Assembly: GCF_056712565.1 (NCBI RefSeq)
Contig: NZ_CM160072.1
Strand: one strand, 5' to 3'
Length of the DNA: 64,000 nt
Shown: positions 42,001 to 45,000 of the stretch, one piece after another
Position numbering within the stretch: the first letter of the stretch is position 1
Layout of the letters: the number at the start of each line of letters is the position of its first letter
Made by a program: the position numbers

Positions 42001-45000
42001 TGAAACCGTTGGGCAAGAACTGGCGGGTAACCCAAAGGTCGCAATGGTCAGTATGACAGGCAGCGTCTCTGCAGGTGAAAAGATTATGGCGACTGCGGCG
42101 AAAAACATCACCAAAGTGTGCCTGGAATTGGGGGGTAAAGCACCGGCTATCGTAATGGACGATGCCGATCTTGAACTGGCAGTCAAAGCCATCGTTGATT
42201 CACGCGTCATTAATAGTGGGCAAGTGTGTAACTGTGCAGAACGTGTTTATGTACAGAAAAGCATTTATGATCAGTTCGTCAATCGGCTGGGGGAAGCGAT
42301 GCAGGCGGTTCAATTTGGTAACCCCGCTGAACGCAACGACATTGCGATGGGACCGTTGATTAACGCCGCGGCGCTGGAAAGGGTTGAGCAAAAAGTGGCG
42401 CGCGCAGTAGAAGAAGGGGCGAGAGTGGCGTTGGGTGGCAAAGCGGTAGAGGGGAAAGGATATTATTATCCGCCGACATTGCTGCTGGATGTTCGCCAGG
42501 AAATGTCGATTATGCATGAGGAAACCTTTGGCCCGGTTCTGCCGGTGGTCGCATTTGACACGCTGGAAGAGGCTATCTCAATGGCTAATGACAGTGATTA
42601 CGGCCTGACCTCATCAATCTATACCCAAAATCTGAACGTCGCGATGAAAGCCATTAAAGGGCTGAAGTTTGGTGAAACTTACATCAACCGTGAAAACTTC
42701 GAAGCTATGCAAGGCTTCCACGCTGGATGGCGTAAATCCGGTATTGGCGGCGCAGATGGTAAACATGGCTTGCATGAATATCTGCAGACCCAGGTGGTTT
42801 ATTTACAGTCGTAATGAGTGAAAGAGGCGGAGGTTTTTTCCTCCGCCTGTGCGCGTCAGAGTTTAGCGAATTTTTCGAGGGTGCGAATAAGCTGCGTGAC
42901 GAAGCCATATTCGTTATCGTACCAGGCGACCGTTTTCACCAGTTGTAAATCGCCCACGGCGGTAATTTCCGTTTGCGTGGCATCAAACACCGAACCGAAA
43001 TGGCTGCCAATGATATCGGAAGAGACTATTTCTTCATCAGTATAACCAAATGACTCGTTATTGTTTGTCGCCTTTTTAAGCGCGTTGTTCACCTCTTCGG
43101 CAGTCACTTTCTTTCCGAGAATCGACACCAGTTCAGTGACCGAACCTGTTTTCACCGGCACGCGTTGCGCATGACCTTTCAGTTTGCCGCTCAGTTCCGG
43201 GATCACCAGACCAATGGCTTTTGCCGCCCCCGTAGTGTGGGGAATGATATTTTCTGCCGCTGCGCGTGAAGCACGTAAATCTTTACCACGTGGGCCATCC
43301 ACCAGTGACTGGGTGCCGGTATAGGCATGAATGGTTGTCATCGTGCCGACTTCTATCCCGAAACTGTCATGCAAGGCTTTGGCCATCGGCGCAAGGCAGT
43401 TAGTGGTGCATGACGCCACGGAAACAATGGTGTCGTTGCCATCCAGAGTGTCGTCATTGACGTTATAAACGATGGTTTTCATTTCACCGGCAGGGGCGGA
43501 AATCAACACCTTCTTCGCGCCAGCATCAAGATGCGCCTGCGATTTCTCGGCGGAGGTATAAAAGCCTGTACATTCGACAATGATTTCTGCGCCTTTCGCT
43601 TTCCACGGAATATTTTTAGCCTCTTTTTCGGCGTAAACCGCGATACTTTTCCCATTAACGATAAGTGAATCTTCCGTATAATCAACGCTCCAGGGGAACG
43701 GTCCGTAGTTTGAATCATGTTTCAGCAGGTAGGCGAGAATTTTTGGGGAAGTGAGATCATTAATAGCGACAACGTCTATGTTGCTTTTGACTTCAAGTAA
43801 TCGACGCAACACCAGTCGACCGATACGACCAAAACCATTAATACCAACTTTACTCATGGTCTTCTCCTGTCAGGAACGTTCGGATGAAAATTGATCCTTT
43901 CCAGGCTTAGACCAGGATGGCGGGATGGGCAATCTACATTCTTGCAGCGAAACGTAACGTACTGAAAACAGGTGAACAATATTTAATGAAATTTTAAGAA
44001 AAGCCCGTTATGTTAACGGCAAATTATGTTAAAGCAGGAAATGTTATGGGAAATAAATACTCAAGGTTACAAATCAGCATTCACTGGCTGGTCTTTTTGC
44101 TGGTTATCGTAGCGTATTGCGCAATGGAGTTTCGTGGTTTCTTCCCACGTAGCGATCGGCCCCTCATCAACATGATTCATGTTTCCTGTGGCATCTCAAT
44201 TCTCGTACTGATGGTGGTTCGTCTTTTGTTAAGGCTGAAATGCCCAACCCCGCCGATTATACCTAAGCCAAAACCGATGATGACGGGACTGGCGCATTTG
44301 GGCCATTTGGTGATTTATCTCCTGTTTATTGCGCTGCCAGTGATTGGTTTGGTGATGATGTATAACCGGGGCAACCCGTGGTTTGCGTTTGGTTTGACGA
44401 TGCCTTACGCTTCAGAGGCCAATTTCGAACGGGTTGATAGCTTAAAGTCGTGGCATGAAACGCTGGCGAATCTGGGATATTTTGTCATCGGGTTGCACGC
44501 TGCGGCTGCACTGGCACACCACTATTTCTGGAAGGACAACACACTTCTACGCATGATGCCGCGTAAACGTTCCTGAAGGATATTTAAAGAAAACGCCTGT
44601 ACTAAAACCGACCCGTGGTACAGGCGAAGAATACGGGCCTACATCGGAAGCGCCTATTATATTTATTTGTATGACAAATAAAACCATAATCCTTGTCTAT
44701 ACGTCCATCTGGCTTATCTTTAATCAATTCACCCGATCTTTGATCTCATCAACGGTATCAAAATAAACCAGCGTATAACGTTCAAATCGAACATAAGATT
44801 CGATAAATCATGGAGGTTATATGAAAAAACTGGCACTTATCCTGGTTATGGGAACGCTTGTTTCCTTTTATGCCGATGCCGGGCGCAAACCCTGTTCTGG
44901 TTCGAAAGGGGGGATCTCACACTGTACGGCAGGCGGCAAATTTGTCTGTAATGATGGTTCTATTAGTGCATCGAAAAAAACATGCACTAACTGAAGTGTA

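Follow-up and report, generated by a model that had tools for sequence, protein, structure and literature searches.

The closest described counterpart of the gene considered here is the crystallised Escherichia coli enzyme EcGAPDH1, for which 13 structures are held in the PDB (7C5F, 7C5H, 7C5P, 7C7K and mutants). EcGAPDH1 is an active, NAD-dependent enzyme with a KM of 0.73 mM for glyceraldehyde-3-phosphate (G3P). Its C150A mutant is inactive, the C150S and H177A mutants show activity reduced by more than 8,000-fold, and the structures include NAD, G3P, the thioacyl intermediate and BPG (PMC8615399). At the level of the gene, Espinosa-Urgel and Kolter (1998), in the wording of the passage of PMC2949598 that cites them, found that environmental isolates have an intact gapC and laboratory strains a mutated one, and described fresh water as favouring gapC expression, with environment-specific promoter activity. 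The gapC transcript has also been measured in EPEC, where it is CsrA-responsive and lower in a csrA mutant (PMC6333774), and in K-12 derivatives, in which both gapC fragments are still transcribed in an RpoS-dependent manner and at higher levels during slow growth on glucose (PMC2759082). A literature search for GapC within the secreted GAPDH of EHEC and EPEC returned no paper mentioning gapC. The presence of an intact gapC in wild E. coli has been known since 1998, and the finding of one here is correct but ordinary.

The window, meaning the whole 64,000-nucleotide stretch of contig NZ_CM160072.1 that was analysed, contains gapC between aldA and cybB. The features on which the analysis draws are the following.

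41375..42814, plus strand: aldA (aldehyde dehydrogenase A), the convergent neighbour of gapC, which defines synteny
42825..42848, no strand assigned: hairpin AGGCGGAGG-N6-CCTCCGCCT, 9 bp and G+C-rich, between the convergent aldA and gapC stops
42856..43857, minus strand: gapC CDS, a single uninterrupted ORF with an ATG start and 333 codons plus TGA
43111, minus strand: frameshift site, the G of GGAAAGAAAGTG (CDS nt 747, codon 249), absent in K-12
43741..43743, minus strand: codon 39, AAA (Lys) in the window and a TAA stop in K-12 (CDS nt 115 A>T)
43858..44045, no strand assigned: gapC-cybB divergent intergenic region of 188 bp, highly conserved across alleles, the presumed site of the gapC promoter
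43864..43868, minus strand: Shine-Dalgarno AGGAG, 6 nt 5' of the gapC ATG, the same in 15 of 15 alleles compared
44046..44576, plus strand: cybB (cytochrome b561 / superoxide oxidase), the divergent neighbour of gapC, which defines synteny
44587-44650, minus strand: rydC sRNA gene, full length and 3' of cybB (Rfam RF00505 at 90.5 bits, with a gathering score of 48)

The order aldA-gapC-cybB is the same in the window and in K-12 MG1655, as expected of an orthologue by position, and the two sequences are collinear over 6 kb at 96.9% identity. The closest match lies elsewhere: the gapC ORF is 100% identical to the gene labelled "gap" in E. coli ATCC 11775 (WP_000048694.1), and 9,002 bp around gapC align with the finished chromosome of this type strain at 100.000% identity, with no mismatch or gap. 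The initial annotation had described a complete 333-aa ORF at 42856-43857, and this is borne out by the ORF listing, which shows no internal stop, places the gene on the minus strand (a point absent from that annotation) and has the TGA included in the end coordinate. The 1002 nt likewise contain no hidden stop or frameshift, both sites at which K-12 is damaged being in the intact state.

Several further observations concern the neighbouring genes. The mechanical ORF of cybB begins at an ATG at 44010 on the plus strand and runs for 188 aa, while the RefSeq gene of 531 nt starts at 44046 and encodes 176 aa; the upstream in-frame ATG at 44010 is probably unused. The rydC gene stands next to cybB in K-12 as well. 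Further along, an ORF at 45152-45622 on the plus strand encodes a 156-aa C-terminal fragment of Trg, with a deletion junction at 45169-45177. Relative to K-12, 1,639 bp are absent here (NC_000913.3 1492027-1493665) and are replaced by a filler of about 9-11 nt (GTTACTCTCGC); the deletion takes out the 5' end of hokB, mokB, sokB, the trg promoter and the first ~1.2 kb of trg. The region is annotated alike in ATCC 11775. Lane et al. in 2006 are said to have reported that functional loss of Trg is common in uropathogenic/B2 E. coli.

Assignment of the gapC product to the GAPDH family, as the initial annotation had proposed, was supported by profile matches, by domain content and by the catalytic residues. 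The product matches TIGR01534, the NCBIfam equivalog model for type I GAPDH, scoring 448.1 bits where the cut-off is 367.2, and residues 3-325 cover profile positions 1-330 of 330. Both Pfam domains of the family are present and essentially full length, namely the N-terminal NAD-binding Rossmann domain (Gp_dh_N, PF00044, 124 bits) and the C-terminal catalytic domain (Gp_dh_C, PF02800, 196 bits). The motifs that had been called intact are indeed so: the NAD-binding GxGxxG is found as GFGRIG at residues 8-13 with the acidic Asp34 at the end of beta-2, and the catalytic SCTTNC lies at 149-154 with Cys150 as the catalytic cysteine. The catalytic His177 and the phosphate-site residues Thr180, Arg198 and Arg232 are all in place, with Arg198 aligned to the Arg of GGRGA in GapA. 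As a separate matter, the model for GapA-type GAPDH (NF011954) was tried and rejected, the product scoring 303 bits against a cut-off of 662.

By aligning the window allele with its K-12 counterpart, we located the lesions that separate the two. The MG1655 annotation lists gapC (b4493) as a pseudogene with a length of 1001 nt, and the global alignment contains 24 substitutions and one deletion, i.e., 25 differences in 1002 nt, so that K-12 is clearly not identical here. Two of these changes disable the K-12 gene, the conversion of Lys39 from AAA to TAA at CDS nt 115 and the loss of one nucleotide at codon 249 (nt 747). The earlier description of K-12 gapC as a frameshifted pseudogene therefore holds with respect to the frameshift and the pseudogene status and is incomplete in leaving the codon-39 stop unmentioned; the RefSeq label for the K-12 allele in a K-12-like strain reads "frameshifted; internal stop". 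EPEC E2348/69 agrees with the window at the site of the K-12 frameshift. Taken with the family assignment, we consider it very probable that the ORF is the intact ancestral E. coli chromosomal gapC allele, encoding a homotetrameric type I NAD-dependent phosphorylating GAPDH (EC 1.2.1.12), and that the pseudogene of K-12 is derived and specific to its lineage.

The frequency of intact and broken alleles was examined across a collection of 5426 complete E. coli genomes, using short diagnostic queries in which each 28-base megablast seed was forced to span the variant. The gapC locus is present in 5417 of the 5426 genomes, and 1032 carry an allele with at least 99% identity to that of the window. 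At codon 39, the K-12 TAA allele is found in 1155 of the 5426 (21%) and the Lys allele (AAA) in at least 3718, while the K-12 1-nt deletion occurs in 1050 of the 5426 (19%). The window 38-mer around the frameshift site matches 308 genomes, a number that cannot be set against the frameshift count as its complement, since this stretch is polymorphic, and that was left unused. The difference between 1155 and 1050 carriers suggests that the codon-39 stop is older than the frameshift. Carriers of the K-12 alleles comprise many K-12 laboratory derivatives together with isolates from swine, duck, chicken, cattle, cat, humans and river water; because wild isolates are among them, the lesions represent a natural polymorphism older than laboratory culture.

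The length of the gene was further considered in matches taken at even intervals along the ranking, among which 32 of 39 full-length matches measure exactly 1002 nt. Twelve sampled alleles of this length, with 96.1-97.9% identity to the window, were all annotated as intact CDSs and showed no stops on translation (12/12), and the one 1000-nt allele sampled is a K-12-type pseudogene with added damage. From these proportions (32/39 at exactly 1002 nt and 12/12 of those sampled intact), it follows that roughly three-quarters or more of sequenced E. coli have an intact gapC. An intact gapC is the norm in the species, and the strain of the window has the common state; its exact GapC protein is found on at least 1000 public contigs. 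A plasmid-borne gapC was also considered and rejected, as the five matches labelled "plasmid" are records of 4.8-4.9 Mb or large non-mobilizable fragments of 250-385 kb, and most likely represent E. coli chromosomal sequence under a wrong label. In Pantoea, a gap gene that is 75% identical in DNA is carried by two megaplasmids of ~0.5 Mb.

Comparison of 13 intact alleles gave a mean dS of 0.110 and a mean dN of 0.0041, corresponding to a dN/dS of 0.037. Third codon positions hold 73 of the 85 segregating sites, and none of the twelve variable amino-acid positions falls at a catalytic residue. Intact gapC alleles are under strong purifying selection. Within E. coli, gapC dS reaches 0.158, with identity down to 96.1%.

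The signals around the gene were examined alongside these constraints. Scanning the gapC-cybB intergenic region with the sigma-70 consensus gave 2 sites, where chance alone would give 1.8, and no promoter is named. At the other end, the hairpin 9 nt after the gapC stop folds at -18.5 kcal/mol (z = -4.33), a value equalled or bettered by 1 of 200 shuffles, and is kept in all alleles; it is likely a terminator shared by aldA and gapC, its U-tract being weak in the gapC direction. A terminator pattern scan did not flag this hairpin because of the T-run in its loop, and it was folded separately.

The rival reading that fares best is that gapC is intact and yet effectively cryptic, too weakly transcribed or translated to matter, with GapA doing all the work. 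The 188-bp upstream region, with its lack of a convincing sigma-70 promoter, would fit this reading, as would the ~20% of E. coli, wild isolates included, that live without an intact gene, which implies that some niches, at least, do not require gapC. However, a dN/dS of 0.037 among alleles whose synonymous sites diverge by as much as 16% is unexpected for a silent gene, and transcripts have been reported both in EPEC (PMC6333774) and in K-12 derivatives (PMC2759082), together with the environment-specific promoter activity mentioned in the citing passage of PMC2949598. We therefore regard a cryptic gapC as unlikely. The proposal of the initial annotation that a second GAPDH may be expressed in this strain is consistent with the selection estimate, with the AGGAG ribosome-binding site and the hairpin, with the transcripts seen elsewhere and with the in vitro activity of the 329/333-identical protein. 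Judging from the literature, such expression is probably conditional, being tied to slow growth, RpoS/stationary phase and fresh water.

A second rival retains the GAPDH fold and assigns it another primary activity, whether that of an erythrose-4-phosphate dehydrogenase (Epd/GapB-like), of an NADP-dependent enzyme or of an arsenate-linked partner of ArsJ. The product does score against the corresponding models, as would be expected of any GAPDH paralogue, but these scores lie far under the cut-offs, with 281 bits against 539 (NF010058) and 279 bits against 531 (TIGR01532) for the Epd models and 306 bits against 450 for the ArsJ-associated GAPDH (NF033735). Moreover, Asp34, which is typical for NAD-specific enzymes, is present, the adjoining genes are aldA and cybB with no arsJ beside gapC, and the near-identical EcGAPDH1 accepts G3P as a substrate with NAD, and its crystal structures contain G3P, the thioacyl intermediate and BPG (PMC8615399). 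A different primary activity is thus very improbable. That an error of sequencing or assembly has produced the intact frame and masks a gene broken as in K-12 has a negligible chance of being correct, with nothing found in its favour and with the perfect match of 9 kb to the finished ATCC 11775 chromosome, the alleles of at least 99% identity in 1032 genomes and the exact protein on at least 1000 contigs all standing against it.

For the preferred reading, that of an intact type I NAD-dependent GAPDH, a reaction course can be proposed from the family and from what has been demonstrated for the 329/333-identical protein. Cys150, activated by His177, would attack glyceraldehyde-3-phosphate; a hydride would pass to NAD+, presumably held by the GxGxxG motif and Asp34; and phosphate would then bring about the release of 1,3-bisphosphoglycerate. 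GapC would be an additional GAPDH alongside GapA, probably without the main role in glycolysis.

The implications are accordingly modest, with little import beyond correct annotation. K-12 is atypical at gapC, and models of E. coli central metabolism based on K-12 leave out an additional, catalytically competent GAPDH encoded by most wild strains. The only mildly new point is a quantitative one, namely that the stop is carried by 21% and the frameshift by 19% of the 5426 complete genomes, wild isolates included. As a tentative and rather doubtful suggestion, with the K-12 lesions taken as natural and not as a product of domestication, retention versus loss of GapC could mark an ecological split in which a secondary GAPDH, RpoS-dependent or suited to cold or fresh water, has been kept under strong purifying selection in most lineages and has become dispensable in that of K-12. 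If this were true, the B2 allele of the window would contribute measurably to fitness outside the host.

Set against known systems, the allele of the window can be placed with some precision. The K-12 gapC pseudogene (b4493; formerly b1417/b1416, gapC_1/gapC_2) shares with it the locus between aldA and cybB, 97.5% nucleotide identity and the same ribosome-binding site and upstream region, but carries the TAA at codon 39 and the 1-nt deletion at codon 249, neither of which is found in the window. Epd (GapB), the erythrose-4-phosphate dehydrogenase, shares the GAPDH superfamily fold, whereas the window GapC falls below both Epd cut-offs and is a non-member. GapA (b1779), the housekeeping glycolytic GAPDH, has in common with GapC the fold, the domain pair, the SCTTNC motif with its His and the reaction, yet it is a paralogue with only 47% identity and is encoded at another chromosomal locus. 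The nearest of these systems is the crystallised EcGAPDH1 (7C5F), to which the window GapC is identical at 329 of 333 residues over the full length and with no gaps, sharing the catalytic Cys150 and His177; the four differences (Y60F, N68D, K262Q and N265T) are none of them catalytic, and all lie at positions that are polymorphic within E. coli.
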